Source: an uncultured bacterium
GTDB lineage: Bacteria > Fidelibacterota > Marinisomatia > Marinisomatales > TCS56
Reading direction: 5' to 3'
DNA: 20,866 nucleotides
Assembly: GCA_964539785.1 (NCBI GenBank)
Contig: CAZIJQ010000042.1
Location: forward strand, 1-20,866
Part shown: positions 3,046-9,773 of the stretch, piece after piece
Position numbering within the stretch: the first letter of the stretch is position 1
How the letters are laid out: each line of letters opens with the position of its first letter
The notes under the pieces: model-generated
What the model was told of the DNA's origin: nothing
Seen by the model: only the letters and a program-made list of their open reading frames with translations
Database searches by the model: none
Position numbers and translations under genes: made by a program

Positions 3046-3315
3046 TTATTTTAAAGCCACCTCATCCACCACCCCAACAATGATCGACCGGATTGGCCCC
3101 ATAGGGTCGTCCACTACCTGGCGGGCGGAATTGCCTTCGTCGATCACCAGCACCGTTTCACCAGCGCCGCTGTCGGTCCAATCTACCGCAATTAAATAAT
3201 CTCCGGTTGGTTTGCCGTTCAGTCCCAGTTTGTCTACCACCAGTAGCCGGCGGTTCTCATAAAATTTATGATTTATAGTAGAATGGATCGTTCCGCAGAC
3301 GCGCCCCAGAATCAT
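3046..3315 (-). CDS. BMC vertex protein (BMC-P, EutN/CcmL/PduN family)
   Basis: 89 aa with an MILGRVCGTIHST...GAGETVLVIDEGNSARQVV pattern typical of Pfam EutN_CcmL. 4-nt start/stop overlap with the upstream BMC-P gene. Confidence 0.85.
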   Translation of the reverse strand: MILGRVCGTIHSTINHKFYENRRLLVVDKLGLNGKPTGDYLIAVDWTDSGAGETVLVIDEGNSARQVVDDPMGPIRSIIVGVVDEVALK

Positions 3316-3596
3316 TGCTCCTCCCCATCGTAAAGCTGTACATCGTCAACGATGCCCACCACGGCATGATCCACCGGCACGAACCAGGGGTCCATGAGTA
3401 GAGCGGCCTCGCGGCTGCTTTCATAATACACCAGTTCGCCCGGTCCTGCCATGCGGGTGCTATCGGCAGCGATCACCGGTGATTTGACCGGCTGCTGGTA
3501 TTTATCCAGCGGTTGCATCACCAGCATGGGGACACCTTCCAGTCCGTCATAAACCACGGACGGGGTCAGTGTGCCGATAATTCGACCTAACTTCAT
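3312..3596 (-). CDS. BMC vertex protein (BMC-P, EutN/CcmL/PduN family)
   Basis: 94 aa, MKLGRIIGTLTPSVV...AGPGELVYYESSREAALL. 4-nt overlaps with both neighbouring genes, consistent with translational coupling. Confidence 0.85.
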   Translation of the reverse strand: MKLGRIIGTLTPSVVYDGLEGVPMLVMQPLDKYQQPVKSPVIAADSTRMAGPGELVYYESSREAALLMDPWFVPVDHAVVGIVDDVQLYDGEEQ

Positions 3597-4393
3597 TCGC
3601 CCTCCGATAGTTTATCAAGGTTGGCACGACCGAAATAAGTGGTAGCATCCACCTGGGCCGCCATCTCCGGATGCAGGTTGGGGATGATTGTCTCCCGCAG
3701 CCAATTCTCAGTGCTGGTACAGGCCTCTCGAGCAATTCGCACCGCCGCTTCCACTTCGTGCAGATCACCATTAAAAATCGTGAATGCCTTGCCACCGATA
3801 TCATCCGCCAGACGAATTTCAACAATATTGACTTCGGCTCCTTTAACGCCCGCATCGGCTGAACGAAGAGTAGCCGCCACGGTAAAGGTCTCACAAATAC
3901 CCAGTGCCCGCGGTTCACATTTGCGGCGCTGACCCAAGACAGAATCGTGAACCTGATCGTGAACCACCGGCAGGATTACCGAATCCACTACTTGAGTGCC
4001 TCCGACTTGCAATCCCTCAGCATAAGCCTCTTCCACAGCGCCGACGCTGCCGCCGATCAACACTAAATATTTACCGTTGTGCACCGTTCCCGATTTGATC
4101 ACTGCGATTGGCGCCCGCTTGATCATGGCATCGCCGCATAGAATACCAATAGTGACGCTGGAATACTCTATCAGGGCAATGGCCGGGTAGCGGGTGTCAG
4201 ATATCCTGGATCTGGGATCGGGAACTGTGGGCTGGGGATCAGGCTTTGAAGGTTGAGGCTCAATCTTTTCAACAAAATTTTCCAGTCCGTCGTCTTTAGC
4301 TGTTGGTTCTTCCAACACCATTGACTCAGAAGTCTTTTTCTGGGCCGCCTTTTGTCGTCGCAATTCTCCGGGGGTTGGTTTCTTTTCACTCAT
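3593..4393 (-). CDS. Tandem BMC-domain shell protein (BMC-T, PduT-like arrangement) with ~65-aa disordered K/P/E/Q-rich N-terminal extension
   Basis: Two canonical-order BMC domains (AIALIEYSSVTIGILCGDAMIKRAP... and ALGICETFTVAATLRSADAGVKGAEV...). They are preceded by MSEKKPTPGELRRQKAAQKK...PQPSKPDPQPTVPDP, a low-complexity segment. Confidence 0.8.
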   Translation of the reverse strand: MSEKKPTPGELRRQKAAQKKTSESMVLEEPTAKDDGLENFVEKIEPQPSKPDPQPTVPDPRSRISDTRYPAIALIEYSSVTIGILCGDAMIKRAPIAVIKSGTVHNGKYLVLIGGSVGAVEEAYAEGLQVGGTQVVDSVILPVVHDQVHDSVLGQRRKCEPRALGICETFTVAATLRSADAGVKGAEVNIVEIRLADDIGGKAFTIFNGDLHEVEAAVRIAREACTSTENWLRETIIPNLHPEMAAQVDATTYFGRANLDKLSEGE

Positions 4394-4420
4394 TACTAAT
4401 TACCCATTACTATTTACTAA

Positions 4421-5866
4421 TCAAACAATTCTGAAATGATCCACCAGAACGCAGCGCCGTTCCCGGGAAAAACTCAGGGGATTGGTGATGCCTTCGCCGG
4501 TGGGACTGGCAATCGAGAATGAACAGTAGCCTTCGCCTTCGTAACCCAGCCCAGCGAGAGATGGACCATTCTTGACAAAAACACTGCAGTTCATCACTCG
4601 CGCCATTCGACTCAGGTTATCCAGATTACGGGAATGCATCATGGCCGTGTGACCGAAACCGTGTTCCGCTTCCTTGGCCAGATCGATGGCCTGGTTGGCA
4701 TCAGGTACGATCACGAAGGGAATCACCGGCATCATCTGCTCGGTCCATACCAGGGGATGGTTGGCATCCACCGGTGCTATGGCCAGGCGGATGTGCTCAT
4801 CGACCTTAAGACCGATCTTCGCCAGAATTTCCTGAACGTTCTTCCCAATCATGTCCTTGTTCATAACCGCCGGTTGGCGGGGACCACGATTTTCGCTGAA
4901 AATCACCGATTCCAATTCCTTAACCTGGTGCTCTTTCAGCACATAGGCATCGTAGCGCAGCAAGGCCGATAAAAGTTGCGGGGCCACTGCTTCCACAACA
5001 ATAATTTCTTTTTCCAGGATGCAGATCAGGTTATTGTCCATGGAAGCACCCTTAACAATACTGCGGGCTGCCTTTTCAATATCGGCAGTCTCGTCCACCA
5101 CCACCGGGGGATTCCCCGGTCCGGCGCAGACGGCGCGCTTACCGCTGGTCATTGCGGCTTTCACCACCGCAGCGCCTCCAGTTACTACCAGCAGGCGCAC
5201 ACCGGGATGCTGCATCAATTCCTGGGCACTGGCGACGGTGGGTTGAGCGATGGTCGTTACCAGATTGGGTGGTCCGCCAGCGTCAACAATGGCGGCATTC
5301 AGCAATTCAACATTGTAAACCGAAACATTCTTGGCCGTGGGATGGACATTGAAAACTGCTGCATTCCCGGCTGCTACCATCCCAATTGTATTACAGATGA
5401 TAGTGGAAGTAGGGTTGGTGCAAGGCGTAATTGAACCGATCACCCCGTAGGGCGCCAACTCCATCAGCGTTAAACCATGATCACCGGTCTTGGCCCAAGG
5501 TTTGAGTATTTCGGTCCCCGGTGTTTTATCGATCACCAACCGGTTTTTTTCAATCTTGTCAGCTACCCGCCCCAGACCGGTTTCGTCATAGGCCCGTTGG
5601 GCCAGGTCTTCGCTGTGCTCGGTCATCACCCGTCGGATCGAGGCGATAATATCATCCCGCTTGGACAGAGACAGGGCATTTAACTGATCAAAGGCTTTAG
5701 CTGCCGCCGCCACTGCCAGATCGATGGTAGGGAAAATCCCCATTCCACCAGCGGCTACAGTGCTCCCGGATTGCTCCAGTACTCCCGATGCAACAGGTGT
5801 TTGGGTCACCCGCTTCACCAGCCGGGCGGCAATTTGCTCAACCTGTTCCTGGGTTAATTGTGCCAT
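4421..5866 (-). CDS. CoA-acylating aldehyde dehydrogenase (PduP/EutE family) with N-terminal encapsulation-peptide-like helix
   Basis: Aldehyde dehydrogenase fold with the catalytic Cys region NNLICILEKE. Preferred start is the ATG at 5866 (MAQLTQEQVEQIAARLVKRV...), which has AAAGGA 8 nt upstream. The ORF-track start at 5905 would lie inside a hairpin repeat. The N-terminal amphipathic helix plus G/S/T-rich linker is typical of BMC cargo. Confidence 0.85.
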   Translation of the reverse strand: MAQLTQEQVEQIAARLVKRVTQTPVASGVLEQSGSTVAAGGMGIFPTIDLAVAAAAKAFDQLNALSLSKRDDIIASIRRVMTEHSEDLAQRAYDETGLGRVADKIEKNRLVIDKTPGTEILKPWAKTGDHGLTLMELAPYGVIGSITPCTNPTSTIICNTIGMVAAGNAAVFNVHPTAKNVSVYNVELLNAAIVDAGGPPNLVTTIAQPTVASAQELMQHPGVRLLVVTGGAAVVKAAMTSGKRAVCAGPGNPPVVVDETADIEKAARSIVKGASMDNNLICILEKEIIVVEAVAPQLLSALLRYDAYVLKEHQVKELESVIFSENRGPRQPAVMNKDMIGKNVQEILAKIGLKVDEHIRLAIAPVDANHPLVWTEQMMPVIPFVIVPDANQAIDLAKEAEHGFGHTAMMHSRNLDNLSRMARVMNCSVFVKNGPSLAGLGYEGEGYCSFSIASPTGEGITNPLSFSRERRCVLVDHFRIV

Positions 5867-5913
5867 AATATGTCCTTTAGCCAGGGGATTAGTTACCGTG
5901 TACATCCAATCAT

Positions 5914-5981
5914 GTCACCCTGAGCCTGTCGAAGGGTGTCAACATGATTGATCAGCCATGCTTCGACGGGCTCAGCATGAC
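5914..5981. repeat. Inverted pair of 27-nt hairpin repeat units (REP/BIME-like) in the BMC-P/AldDH intergenic gap
   Basis: Unit A1 at 5914-5940 is gtcaccc-TGAGCCTGTCGAA-gggtgtc. Unit A2 at 5955-5981 has the opposite orientation (its reverse complement is gtcatgc-TGAGCCCGTCGAA-gcatggc). The 13-nt loop is conserved; the 7-bp stems differ but remain complementary. Confidence 0.75.
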
Positions 5982-5994
5982 AGACACGCGTCAA

Positions 5995-6294
5995 CTAATC
6001 GTTCACGCCTTTTTTGTAGCGGATTTTTCCGTCTACTTCCCAGTTGTCAACGATGGCCATAACCACAGCATCGCAGGGACGCTTGTCGGTCATTACCGTC
6101 TGCCGGGCGGAACTTCCGCTGGCATAGAGAACCATTTCACCCACTCCTGCCTGGACAGCATCAGCGGCGACAACAAAGCCGCCGCTGGGTTTACCATCCA
6201 TGTCAATATTCTGGAGCAGCAGAAATTTGAGGCCCTCCAAGCTCTGTTCTTTTTGTGTGGCTACCAGGGTACCCACTACTTGTGCCAGAACCAT
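5995..6294 (-). CDS. BMC vertex protein (BMC-P, EutN/CcmL/PduN family)
   Basis: 99 aa, [16 protein letters not shown]...[18 protein letters not shown]. Third BMC-P paralog in the locus. Confidence 0.85.
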
Positions 6295-6305: not shown

Positions 6306-6614
6306 CTAATCCTCGGTCATTTTGGCTTTGGGCTTGTCACCGCGACCGATAGGCATTACCAGGTCCACATTACTGTGGGGACGGGCAATTACATGAACGG
6401 CAACGATTTCGCCTACGCGGGCGGCACCGGCTTTACCGGCATCGCAGGCAGCCTTTACAGCGGCCACATCACCGCGGACGATCGCTGAAACATAACCGCC
6501 ACCGGTCTTTTCATAAGATACTAGCTCGACTTTGGCCGCTTTGACCATGGCGTCGGCGGCTTCCACTACTGCCGGGAAACTGCGCGTTTCGATCATTCCA
6601 AGTGCTTCTGCCAT
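6306..6614 (-). CDS. BMC hexamer shell protein (BMC-H, PduA/EutM/CcmK-like)
   Basis: 102 aa. [56 protein letters not shown] is a near-consensus single BMC domain. It has a short Lys-rich C-terminal tail ([13 protein letters not shown]). Confidence 0.9.
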
Positions 6615-6746: not shown

Positions 6747-7373
6747 TTATTTTTTATCTTTCTCAACCCCGGTGATTTCTTCAATGCATTTTACGGCGGC
6801 GCGCCAGCCTACATCAATATCCCTTTCGGCTCCGCCCAGATACACACGGCCGAAGCTGCCGAAAGTTCGTACTTCCAAAATATTGATTTCGGCAGCTTTT
6901 TCCGCTTCATTGGCCGCCAAGGCGGCATAAGCAGCGGGCTGGACCTCCATAACGAACATGGTTTCGCCGGGAACAATCATATTACCGTGGCGCATGCGGT
7001 TAATCAACTGGGTCTGGTGATCATCGATGTGGCGAATCACCTGCTGAGAATAAATTTTTGGCTTCCAACGCTTCTCCTCCTTCAAATCCAACGCATCCAG
7101 AATAGCCTGTCCAGCCTGGCGCACATCGGCCTGGGATTCGGAATGAATTTCCAGCATTCCGAACAACCGTTCCACGATCTGCATCCCTGGAGTAACATTA
7201 GTAGATTTCAAGGCGATGTCGGTGATCCGGTTGATTTCGATCCCTGGGGAAATTTCAACATACAATGAAGCCATCCCGGCGATTGGTAAAAAACCCTTAG
7301 CCACTGTGCCGAGAAAGGCGGCGTACTGGGGTTGAAGATTATCCAGAAAACAATAAGCGCGTAAATCGACCAC
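6747..7373 (-). CDS. Tandem BMC-domain shell protein (BMC-T, PduT-like)
   Basis: 208 aa. Two BMC-like halves: [24 protein letters not shown]... and [29 protein letters not shown].... Domain order appears canonical (non-permuted). Assignment rests on the motif pattern only. Confidence 0.7.
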
Positions 7374-7390: not shown

Positions 7391-8800
7391 TTAATTCGAA
7401 ATTGTTGTTTCTTGGGCACCTTTAACGATCCCAATACTGGCGCTGGCACCAATCCGGGTAGCCCCGGCTTCAACCATCTTGCGGGCATCGTCATACGATC
7501 TGATACCACCGGCGGCTTTCACGCCCAATCCCGCTCCTTGGACAACCCGGCTCATGAGAGCCACATCTTCGGCAGTAGCACCACCAGGACCAAAACCGGT
7601 GGACGTTTTAACATAATTAGCGCGAGCTTTTTTTGACAGCTCGCAAGCCCTAACTTTTTCGTCGTCGGTTAACAAAGCTGCTTCGATAATAACTTTACTG
7701 GTGGCGCTGCCGTCTTCGCAGGCCTCACAGACTGATCGGATATCCCGGTAAACTAAGTCATCTTTGCCACTTTTCAGAGCGCCGATATTGATCACCATAT
7801 CGATTTCTTTCGCACCATCGCGGATCGCCTGGCGGGTCTCCATGGCCTTGATCTCCGGTGAATGGGCTCCGGAAGGAAAGCCCACCACGGTGCAGACTTT
7901 CACATCGGAACCGTCCAGTTCTTTGGCTGCTAGCCTCACATAACTGGGACTAATACATACCGTGGCAAAATGGAAGTCCCGAGCTTCACCACAAAGCTTT
8001 TTGATATCGGCATCGGTGGCATCGGGCTTCAAAACGGTGTGATCAATGCAACGGGCAATATCCTCCGGAACGTTTTCGCAGCCGGTACCGTTGTGGTAGC
8101 CGACCCGCTCCACACCAAAATCCATGAATTTGCGTACGGCATCGGGCTGTTGGACCATCTGCTTGCCGCGGATATAATCGGCTTCCAGCGGCTGGGGTAC
8201 GCCAGTGGGCGACAGGGTGATTCCAGCTTTTGCCAAGATTTTCTCGACTTCATCGGTGATTCGTACCAGATCCGATTCGGAGATTCCGGTTTCAACAACC
8301 GAGACCGGTGGTGCCGATTGCGGCGCTGAAAATTCGATGTCAGGTTGCTGTTCGATATCAGTAATCATTTGTACCCGTCGCAAATGCCGCTCGGCGGTAC
8401 ATTCACTGGTAATAAAAGTTTCCACAATTTGTTGCGCCAGTGCGGCACCAATCAGTCCGGCACCCAGTGTCAGAACCCGGGCATCGTTGTGTTCGCGGGC
8501 GTTTTTGGCGGTTGATACATCATAGCACAGAGCTGCCCGAATGCCCAACACCTTGTTGGCGGTCATGGCGGAACCAATTCCGGCCCCATCTACCATTACA
8601 CCAAAATCGGCCTCACCAGCAGCGACTTTGCGGGCTACGGCCAGGGCGAACTCGGGATAATCCACAGCAGCGGTGCCATCGGTGCCACAGTCAATTATCG
8701 TACTACCACAACCGGAAAGAAATTCTTTCAATTGGTTTTTCAAGCCATATCCACCGTGATCGGCGCCAATGGCTATTTTCAAGTTTTTTATGTCTTTCAT
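7391..8800 (-). CDS. Fusion protein: RpiB/LacAB-family sugar-phosphate isomerase (aa 1-150) + deoxyribose-phosphate aldolase DeoC/DERA (aa ~230-469)
   Basis: N-terminal [14 protein letters not shown]...[30 protein letters not shown] aligns residue-by-residue with E. coli RpiB. C-terminal [13 protein letters not shown] and the Schiff-base lysine motif [14 protein letters not shown] are DERA signatures. The two are joined by a Pro-rich linker containing an amphipathic helix. Confidence 0.85.
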
Positions 8801-8825: not shown

Positions 8826-9773
8826 TTAACCATTTAACAGCAATTTATTCGCGACAAATTCATCCGTAATAAGCGTATTGAAAAATTTACCCTGTAGTCC
8901 GGCGCGGATTGCTGCCAGCTTACGCTGACCACCAGCCACCGCGATTGATCGGGATTTTTTAGCCAGCTCTGTCAGATCTATTCCGATTGTACGCCGGTCC
9001 AGATCGGAAGAACAAATTTTCCCTTTACCATCGATAATCCGTGAACAAATATCGCCCACAGCCCCCCGTTTCAGCAAATCATTAACTTCATTATTTTCAA
9101 AATAATCTGCCCGTACCAGGACTGAATCCATGCCGAAAGAGCCAATGGTGAAAAAGGCTACCTGGGCCGAGCGGGCCAATTGTAGCGTTCGAGCAATATT
9201 TTTATCGGATACAATCGCTGCCTTAACTGCCGGGCTGTCAACGATGGCGGGTAATGGCAGCAGATAAGGAATGGCCCCGCATTTCTCACCAATGGTCTTG
9301 GCTATTTCACTGGCGTGGGTGTCATATTCGGCCCGTGATATACCGCCGTTCAGCTGTACTACCGTCATGTCCTTAAATTTTTTAGCCTGCACCTGGCCTG
9401 CCAAAGCCTGCATGGTGGTACCCCAGGATACACCAAGGGTCAGGCCATCTTCCAGCAGGTCATTCAGCAGTGATACCGCTGCCTGTCCCAGACGGCGCTG
9501 TACCAACCAGTAGTTACCGTCATCCGGAACGACAATGACTTGCTTGAGCTTGTATTTTTTTTGCAGCTGTGCTTCCAGACGCGTACCGGCAGCTTGGGGA
9601 TCTTTGATTTTTATACTGACAATGCCCTGCTGGCGGGCCGCCTGGAGCAGTCGCGAGACGCCGGGTCGGGAGACTGACATTTTGCGGGCAATATCCTGTT
9701 GGCTGAGCCCATGTTCATAATACAGCCGGGCAGCCTCCACCAACTGGGAAATTCGTTCTGAGTCAGTCAACAT
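8826..9773 (-). CDS. SorC/DeoR(Bacillus-type)/CggR family sugar-phosphate-responsive transcriptional regulator
   Basis: 315 aa. N-terminal HTH (LYYEHGLSQQDIARKMSVSRPGVSRLLQAARQQGIV) is followed by a SorC-type sugar-binding domain. It is the first gene of the BMC operon, 25 nt upstream of the RpiB-DERA gene. Confidence 0.85.
   Translation of the reverse strand: MLTDSERISQLVEAARLYYEHGLSQQDIARKMSVSRPGVSRLLQAARQQGIVSIKIKDPQAAGTRLEAQLQKKYKLKQVIVVPDDGNYWLVQRRLGQAAVSLLNDLLEDGLTLGVSWGTTMQALAGQVQAKKFKDMTVVQLNGGISRAEYDTHASEIAKTIGEKCGAIPYLLPLPAIVDSPAVKAAIVSDKNIARTLQLARSAQVAFFTIGSFGMDSVLVRADYFENNEVNDLLKRGAVGDICSRIIDGKGKICSSDLDRRTIGIDLTELAKKSRSIAVAGGQRKLAAIRAGLQGKFFNTLITDEFVANKLLLNG

Follow-up and report, generated by a model that had tools for sequence, protein, structure and literature searches.

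A conserved cationic N-terminal arm, predicted to face outward, on a trimeric microcompartment shell protein of one Marinimicrobia lineage

Results

We analysed a 20,866-nucleotide stretch of DNA (the window; positions 1 to 20,866 of contig CAZIJQ010000042.1, assembly GCA_964539785.1) from an uncultured bacterium of the order Marinisomatales. It carries on its minus strand an operon for a bacterial microcompartment (BMC) of the sugar-phosphate-utilisation (SPU) type, and one gene of this operon, which encodes a trimeric shell protein (BMC-T), opens with a long N-terminal extension. The operon reads, in order, SorC-type regulator (8826-9773), RpiB-DERA fusion (7391-8800), CsoS1D-like trimer (6747-7373), BMC-H (6306-6614), BMC-P (5995-6294), aldehyde dehydrogenase (AldDH; 4421-5866/5905), BMC-T and two further BMC-P genes (3312-3596 and 3046-3315). 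At related loci, whether with or without the extension, the operon lies in the same surroundings (S21, phosphoglucomutase, the operon, TrmA, ValRS). The BMC-T coding sequence, assigned from the open reading frame (ORF) list, Pfam, PDB matches and Foldseek, is complete (3593..4393, minus strand; 266 amino acids plus stop) and starts with the ATG at 4393.

The folded core of BMC-T comprises residues 67-266 (3596..4195, minus strand), as delimited by AlphaFold2 confidence, alignment to PduT and invariant columns. Pfam finds the BMC family PF00936 twice in the one chain (E=8.7e-31), the second domain covering profile positions 1-74 of 75. In a PDB sequence search the core matched PduT (3pac/3n79; E about 1e-32) and also Haliangium ochraceum (HO) BMC-T1 (5dih/6n06), with residues 67-250 colinear with residues 4-180 of PduT and 16-183 of HO BMC-T1. 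An AlphaFold2 model of the monomer, built from a 59-sequence alignment, has a predicted local distance difference test (pLDDT) score above 85 over most of residues 68-250, with a drop to 71 at 191-200. Foldseek ranked PduT and HO-5812 at the top for this model (target-normalised TM-score 0.72-0.88), and the circularly permuted trimers 5v75 and 5l39 scored far below them (root-mean-square deviation about 8 Å). The colinear alignment and the Foldseek ranking thus identify BMC-T, at the level of sequence and model, as a standard, non-permuted tandem-BMC trimer (BMC-T^s) of the PduT / HO BMC-T1 type. Model and PDB alignment both place the beginning of the fold at about residue 68, with 66 residues preceding it.

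This extension, or arm, has two parts. Residues 1-21 (MSEKKPTPGELRRQKAAQKKT; 4331..4393, minus strand), hereafter the tip, form a conserved cationic peptide, delimited by its invariant residues, its selection, its charge and a helix in the AlphaFold2 model. Residues 22-66 (4196..4330, minus strand) form a fast-evolving linker, first acidic and then proline-rich, which is predicted to be disordered and was delimited by low pLDDT, by its selection and by in-frame insertions and deletions; PDPxP-type proline repeats (PQPSKPDPQPTVPDPRS; 4208..4258, minus strand) can be read off its sequence. A reading of the window made from its letters only (the sequence-only reading) had quoted the 66-residue string correctly, since the ORF at 3593-4393 on the minus strand translates exactly so. 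It had given the coordinates as 4199-4393, which is the right region but one codon short (residues 1-65; the string occupies 4196-4393), and no strand. Its description of a basic start, an acidic middle and a PxP end also stands: the extension, with 12 K+R, 13 D+E and 10 P in total, has a net charge of +5 over residues 1-21 and -6 over residues 22-45, followed by 7 prolines in PDPxP-like repeats over residues 46-66. The same reading had taken the whole extension as intrinsically disordered, which holds for the linker of about 45 residues (pLDDT about 42-58) but not for residues 8-23, which are predicted to be helical.

The arm is rare among homologs. We sampled the best 120 homologs, of which 110 are 201-203 amino acids long and begin with M-K-K/T-Y-P-A-I-A-L 3-4 residues ahead of strand 1, bearing out, for this family, the earlier remark that shell proteins normally start near the fold. 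The other 10 clusters (251-273 amino acids) are extended, and two more extended variants came from a metagenome scan, so that arm carriers amount to only about 12 sequences, with arms of 50-73 residues. Across the extended set the first ~20 residues hardly vary (consensus MSEKKPTPGELRRQKAAxKK), and M1, S2, K4, T7, P8, G9, E10, R12, R13 and A16 are identical in 10/10 extended orthologs. The net charge of residues 1-21 is +4 to +7 in all ten, and of the charge segregation seen in the window protein only this basic tip is conserved. What follows residue 21 is a linker of 29-52 residues with a net charge of -1 to -7, rich in Pro, Glu, Thr and Gln and variable in both sequence and length; the whole extension holds 7-13 prolines. 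Extra proline-repeat units are present in two of the orthologs (P0004 and L105), in one of which (L105) Tandem Repeats Finder detected a repeat array, and the variable number of PDPxP copies fits a change of linker length by slippage.

A charge of +4 to +7 would also suit an electrostatic antenna, that is, outer cationic tips that concentrate anionic substrates (deoxyribose-5-phosphate, nucleotides, DNA fragments) near the pores, the more so as SPU organelles are proposed to process phosphorylated sugars from nucleic-acid breakdown (PMC8217296; PMC11585597). Such a role, however, would not need 10 of the first 16 residues, T7, P8, G9 and E10 among them, to be invariant, and at the end of a long, floppy linker any enrichment close to the pore would be diluted. 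We consider this explanation very unlikely. The polyanion-binding role that the sequence-only reading had offered for the extension may hold for the tip, given its positive charge in every ortholog.

In the AlphaFold2 model of the window protein the chain is helical over residues 8-23 (pLDDT about 77), and pLDDT falls to 42-56 in the segment behind this helix. A separate model of the most divergent extended ortholog (P0010) gave a helix at residues 8-25 (pLDDT 85-90), again followed by a low-confidence linker; the linkers of the two proteins, ~45 residues, lie at pLDDT 42-58. The tip helix has a hydrophobic moment of 0.21 and a mean hydrophobicity of -0.63, and contains 1-2 hydrophobic residues across orthologs (2 among the first 21 in the window protein). 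For comparison, the N-terminal peptide of AldDH from the same operon (MAQLTQEQVEQIAARLVKRV), a typical amphipathic, encapsulation-peptide-like helix, has values of 0.47 and -0.16, respectively. Because of its lower hydrophobic moment and hydrophobicity relative to the AldDH peptide, the tip is, by composition and model, a cationic helix and not a canonical amphipathic encapsulation peptide.

We compared selection on the parts of the gene by Nei-Gojobori counts over 7 loci, using the ratio of nonsynonymous to synonymous divergence (pN/pS). The tip (codons 2-21) had a pN/pS of 0.21 with pS of 0.60, the folded core 0.21 with pS of 0.68, and the linker 0.75 with pS of 0.64. The tip is thus as constrained as the core, and the linker is near neutral, with all of its length changes in frame. 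As tip and core show similar synonymous divergence, the constraint acts at the protein level: what is conserved is the tip peptide, not an RNA element or an overlapping signal. A non-coding explanation was rejected on the same normal synonymous divergence of the tip; Rfam gave no match in the window, and promoter and terminator scans of it returned background level only.

From codon 27 to the BMC fold the window gene contains no in-frame ATG, GTG or TTG. The internal Met25, which the sequence-only reading had raised as the possible true start, is present in only 2/10 extended orthologs, and purifying selection on codons 2-21, which precede it, is as strong as on the core; Met25 was rejected as the start on these grounds. 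Because there is no start codon near the fold and Met25 is not conserved, every BMC-T molecule in the extended clade must, on the sequences, carry the arm, and the upstream ATG must be the functional start. The earlier reading had also named orthologs without an extension, and an extension that proved to be 5' untranslated region, as points that would speak against it: orthologs without one are indeed the majority, but the region is not untranslated, given the lack of any start codon from codon 27 to the fold.

The same BMC-T protein is found on 22 contigs from four sources, and the frame is open across 50-73 extension codons in about 12 diverged sequences, with synonymous change near-saturated. 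Because the identical protein recurs on 22 contigs and the frame is kept in the diverged sequences, the extension is neither chance nor an assembly artefact. A non-functional insertion or a mis-called start (a 5' leader, or neutral read-through of inserted DNA) might be argued from the majority of orthologs that lack the extension, from the nearly neutral linker and from the weak Shine-Dalgarno-like context of the ATG at 4393, although several other window genes are also without one. This explanation is contradicted by the low pN/pS of the tip at normal synonymous divergence, by the frame kept through many indels, by the lack of an alternative start near the fold and by the persistence of the arm in a clade with core identities as low as 72%, and we regard it as extremely improbable. 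We are, conversely, highly confident that the arm is translated, is under selection and has a helix-plus-linker architecture.

The extended proteins are monophyletic on core columns alone (100/100 neighbour-joining bootstraps), with core identities of 72-95% inside the clade and 50-66% to non-extended orthologs. The sources of the close homologs name them Candidatus Marinimicrobia or Neomarinimicrobiota. Where the extension is absent, AldDH and BMC-T leave no gap, the stop codon of the one overlapping or directly adjoining the ATG of the other; at extended loci the AldDH stop codon is followed by a spacer of 20-46 nt and then by the extra codons. In the window this spacer is 27 nt long (4394..4420, minus strand), as read from the sequence. 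Because the extended clade is monophyletic, the synteny is shared, and the spacer and the extra codons sit at the AldDH/BMC-T junction, the arm arose once, in place, at a gene junction. With the extension as query, blastn and tblastn searches of the window and of eight related loci for donor DNA returned only orthologous positions.

Tandem Repeats Finder also detected a tandem duplication of 14 nt (4391-4417, period 14, 1.9 copies), which takes in the start codon of BMC-T. The duplication makes a mini-ORF (ATG GGT AAT TAG) that ends 2 nt ahead of the real ATG, and similar mini-ORFs of 3-5 codons lie upstream of the start at four other loci (L003, L007, L032 and L050). They could be a remnant of the origin of the new start, or a re-initiation relay after AldDH. 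A second junction differs as well: the spacer between the first BMC-P gene and AldDH (5867-5994 in the window) is about 120-160 nt in the extended L001, L003, L007, L105 and L106, and only 12 nt in the non-extended L005 and L006. The extended clade has therefore loosened two operon junctions, not one. At extended loci the BMC-T stop codon overlaps the start of the next BMC-P gene (ATGA).

We searched for the tip elsewhere. A profile hidden Markov model of residues 1-35 run against 1.84 billion representative proteins matched only a family member. A degenerate DNA pattern, TPGE[LI]RRx[KR]A[AT], run against 185,579 GTDB species genomes, gave 97 stretches, of which 5 are real, all of them the N-terminus of this BMC-T; the others were chance matches in high-GC genomes or TPGEFRR-type motifs. 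A stricter pattern found 2 loci in JGI metagenomes, both of the same clade and both at the BMC-T N-terminus. These searches, which for short motifs are of limited power, gave no sign of a targeting signal shared with cargo or other proteins. Nor was an operon partner gained with the arm, gene content and protein lengths being equal in extended (L001, L003, L007) and non-extended (L005, L006) loci.

The other end of the protein differs between the two groups as well. The C-terminal tail of the window protein (residues 250-266, ending ...LDKLSEGE; 3596..3646, minus strand) has a pLDDT of about 48. In 110/110 non-extended orthologs the C-terminus is [S/G]-E-[V/I/L/A/F]; in 9/10 extended orthologs, the window protein included, the terminal hydrophobic residue is missing and the protein ends with the invariant Glu itself. 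Gain of the arm at the N-terminus thus goes together with the disappearance of an otherwise conserved hydrophobic residue at the C-terminus, and the two ends of the chain should lie on one face of the trimer.

That both termini changed together, on what should be one face of a core that is net acidic (-3 to -8), would suit an arm that modulates shell assembly or tiling. The basic helix would then dock either on an acidic outer surface of an adjacent tile, be it BMC-H, the CsoS1D-like double trimer or a pentamer, or else on the acidic C-terminal tail of its own protein, and would control the number of trimers in the shell, or prevent face-to-face stacking and clumping. However, we found no compensating charge change in the core of the extended clade, whose specific substitutions are few and mostly uncharged, with no clade-specific gain of acidic residues and no complementary acidic patch. 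In addition, a spacer of ~45 residues exceeds the reach needed for a neighbouring tile, and the partner shell proteins are equal in length in both clades. We therefore view a tiling role as doubtful.

The side of the shell on which the arm lies decides what it could meet. In published shells the shell proteins turn their concave side outward and their convex side to the lumen. Both termini of BMC-H are by nature on the outside, so that cargo loading makes use of circular permutation or of insertion in a luminal loop of BMC-T^s (PMC6787980). Surface-exposed termini are a general feature across HO, carboxysome and glycyl radical enzyme microcompartment (GRM) shells (PMC10853475), and work on PduK likewise places the concave face outward (PMC9132943). 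The first BMC domain of the window protein is canonical and begins where PduA and PduT begin, and HO BMC-T1, a homolog of the core, has been solved inside an assembled shell (6n06). Because non-permuted BMC domains carry their termini on the concave face, which is turned to the cytoplasm in every solved shell, the N-terminus of BMC-T, and with it the arm, is probably cytoplasmic, judging from homologs and published structures.

The sequence-only reading had placed the concave face and the termini towards the lumen, which the published shells contradict (PMC6787980, PMC10853475, PMC9132943), and had proposed on that basis a lumen-facing scaffold that recruits or condenses cargo, here AldDH and RpiB-DERA. 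A scaffold of this kind has a precedent in PduB, where the N-terminal extension of a trimeric shell protein binds the core (PMC9132943); the helix-plus-linker layout resembles that of an encapsulation peptide (PMC8217296), and the BMC-T gene directly follows the AldDH cargo gene. PduB, however, is permuted, whereas the window BMC-T, a homolog of PduT and HO BMC-T1, is not, and since the concave face is outward its termini should be external. Moreover, the tip helix is non-amphipathic, with the low moment, low hydrophobicity and 1-2 hydrophobic residues noted above; there is no second internal start for a short isoform in the manner of PduB/PduB'; and the cargo proteins show no change of length or domains in the extended clade. 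A luminal scaffold is thus disfavoured, and we consider it unlikely.

The remainder of the locus holds several features of its own. In BMC-T, His105 (4079-4081) is invariant in 59/59 aligned orthologs and is aligned with PduT Cys38, a ligand of the 4Fe-4S cluster at the trimer pore, so that the pore ligand of PduT corresponds to an invariant His in the window BMC-T family. The PDB entry 3n79 is titled 'PduT C38S mutant'. The three His105 copies that would meet at the three-fold axis might make up a metal site or a ring that gates anions. The AldDH cargo gene (4421..5866, minus strand; Pfam Aldedh) has an ORF that opens at 5905, and its homologs begin at the Met at 5866 (MAQLTQEQVE). The protein of 6747-7373 (208 amino acids) is barely at the Pfam BMC threshold; because its orthologs carry the CsoS1D_N family, we assign it, by homology, to the CsoS1D-like trimers of the double-stacking type (BMC-T^dp). 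With 1 H, 1 T^s, 1 T^dp and 3 P genes, the locus has a shell set similar to that of the Haliangium ochraceum model shell. The locus contains no phosphotransacylase gene. An M14 carboxypeptidase with a C-terminal Por/T9SS (type IX secretion system) sorting domain flanks the operon at 13-2112 and fits a lineage of the Fibrobacterota-Chlorobiota-Bacteroidota (FCB) group.

Discussion

The arm is built like a tethered ligand, with a conserved helix at its end and behind it a spacer of largely indifferent sequence, and the interaction arm suggested by the sequence-only reading is in this respect borne out. In a single event in one Marinimicrobia lineage, BMC-T^s gained a translated N-terminal appendage of two parts: a cationic helix of ~20 residues, which is held by strong purifying selection, and a disordered linker of 30-50 residues rich in Pro, Glu and Thr, which is free to drift in sequence and length. 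With the N-terminus on the concave face and hence on the cytoplasmic side, each trimer would expose three flexible arms with a reach of up to roughly 10 nm and with basic helices at their tips on the exterior of the organelle. The arm would bind a cellular, probably polyanionic, partner, and might thereby set the position, mobility or inheritance of the organelle; this partner could be DNA itself or a ParA/MinD-type ATPase bound to the nucleoid. We see about an even chance that the arm is such an outward tether to a cellular, probably polyanionic, partner, with an influence on organelle position or inheritance. The positioning function and the partner are suggested by analogy only, and our confidence in any specific partner is much lower than that in the orientation or the architecture.

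Several observations weigh against this proposal. Neither the window nor the 10 kb on either side of three extended loci contains a ParA/MinD-family gene, and the profile search with residues 1-35 revealed no sequence similarity to known adaptors, both of which count against a ParA-type partner. The tails of PduK and EutK, discussed below as the nearest analogues on the outer face, are C-terminal and sit on single-domain hexamers, whereas the arm is N-terminal and sits on a trimer. The orientation is taken from homologs. An intramolecular or shell-surface docking site may exist but draws no support from the core, where no charge compensation was found. Finally, because most Marinimicrobia with the same operon lack the arm, its role, whatever that may be, is dispensable for basic organelle function.

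A more specific form of the proposal is that of a built-in positioning adaptor, in which a McdB/ParB-like activating helix on the shell protein engages a ParA/MinD ATPase or the nucleoid directly. We put this forward tentatively and think it rather unlikely. If it were true, a catabolic microcompartment would be spaced and inherited without a separate adaptor protein, and the arm would be the first ParA-partner peptide fused to the structural shell of its cargo.

The positioning and partitioning of catabolic microcompartments are poorly understood outside carboxysomes, and the outward extensions of PduK and EutK are suspected, unproven mediators of organelle distribution. The present locus offers a natural experiment: sister lineages share the operon, and only some of them have the cationic arm, which is under selection and predicted to point outward. 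HO BMC-T1, a close homolog of the arm-bearing trimer, is the workhorse of synthetic shells; if the arm does tether or position the organelle, it would provide a compact, transferable module of 20 residues for attaching or displaying things on engineered shells. If, instead, the arm reaches the lumen, the assumed sidedness of standard trimers would be challenged. The arm is also a clear case of a short linear motif that, along with its linker, arose de novo where two genes meet.

Among known shell proteins, PduT and HO BMC-T1 are homologous to the core (residues 67-250). PduT begins at the fold and HO BMC-T1 has ~15 leading residues, and neither carries a conserved basic helix on a long linker.

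PduB is similar to the window protein in being a trimeric shell protein with an N-terminal extension whose interaction role goes beyond tiling, its 37-residue N-terminus joining the shell to the enzyme core (PMC9132943); for the arm, such a role is proposed by analogy. PduB, however, is a circularly permuted trimer (BMC-T^sp) whose extension contacts the enzyme core, in contrast to the non-permuted core of the window protein. PduB also has a short isoform from an internal start, which the window gene is without. We detected no sequence similarity between the PduB N-terminus and the arm, and opposite sidedness is expected for the two.

PduK and EutK are closer to the arm in placement. Upon loss of either, otherwise normal organelles stay at the poles, a phenotype that the authors ascribe, as a proposal, to the flexible C-terminal extension of PduK on the outward concave side, and the C-terminal domain of EutK is positively charged and was likened by the authors to ParB (PMC9132943; PMC12487888). 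In PduK and EutK a flexible or positively charged appendage thus belongs to a minor shell protein and sits on its concave outer face; the arm is likewise a charged extension, with a linker predicted to be disordered, and an outward location is predicted for it by homology. The EutK tail, however, is a folded domain, and neither tail has any sequence relation to the arm.

The closest likeness in layout is to McdB. Alpha-McdB is disordered except for an N-terminal basic helix of 17 residues, and its first 20 residues are necessary and sufficient for binding McdA, a ParA-type ATPase; a positively charged N-terminus is a common feature of the partner proteins of ParA/MinD (PMC12139897). McdB and the arm share an extreme N-terminal basic helix (~17-20 residues) followed by disorder and tied, in the case of the arm by prediction, to the microcompartment exterior, and the arm has two features of ParA/MinD partners, namely a positive peptide in the first 20-30 residues and a predicted helix followed by disorder. 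McdB, however, is a protein of its own and attaches to the shell without a covalent bond, whereas the arm peptide is part of the shell protein chain. In addition, we saw no McdA-like gene close to the arm locus and detected no sequence similarity between McdB and the arm.

Encapsulation peptides resemble the arm in having a short terminal helix (~15-20 residues) and a poorly conserved flexible linker (PMC8217296). They are, however, amphipathic and reside on cargo, whereas the arm is strongly cationic, non-amphipathic, carried by a shell protein and expected outside.

Extensions were noted for BMC-H only, and mostly at the C-terminus, in a 2021 catalog of microcompartments (PMC8217296). N-terminal extensions on BMC-T^s are mentioned neither there nor in a 2024 paper on SPU organelles, which discusses enzyme extensions only (PMC11585597). 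Extensions of shell proteins are thus known as such, with those of PduB, PduK and EutK studied; what is new here is a BMC-T^s whose N-terminal arm is cationic, under selection and restricted to one lineage.

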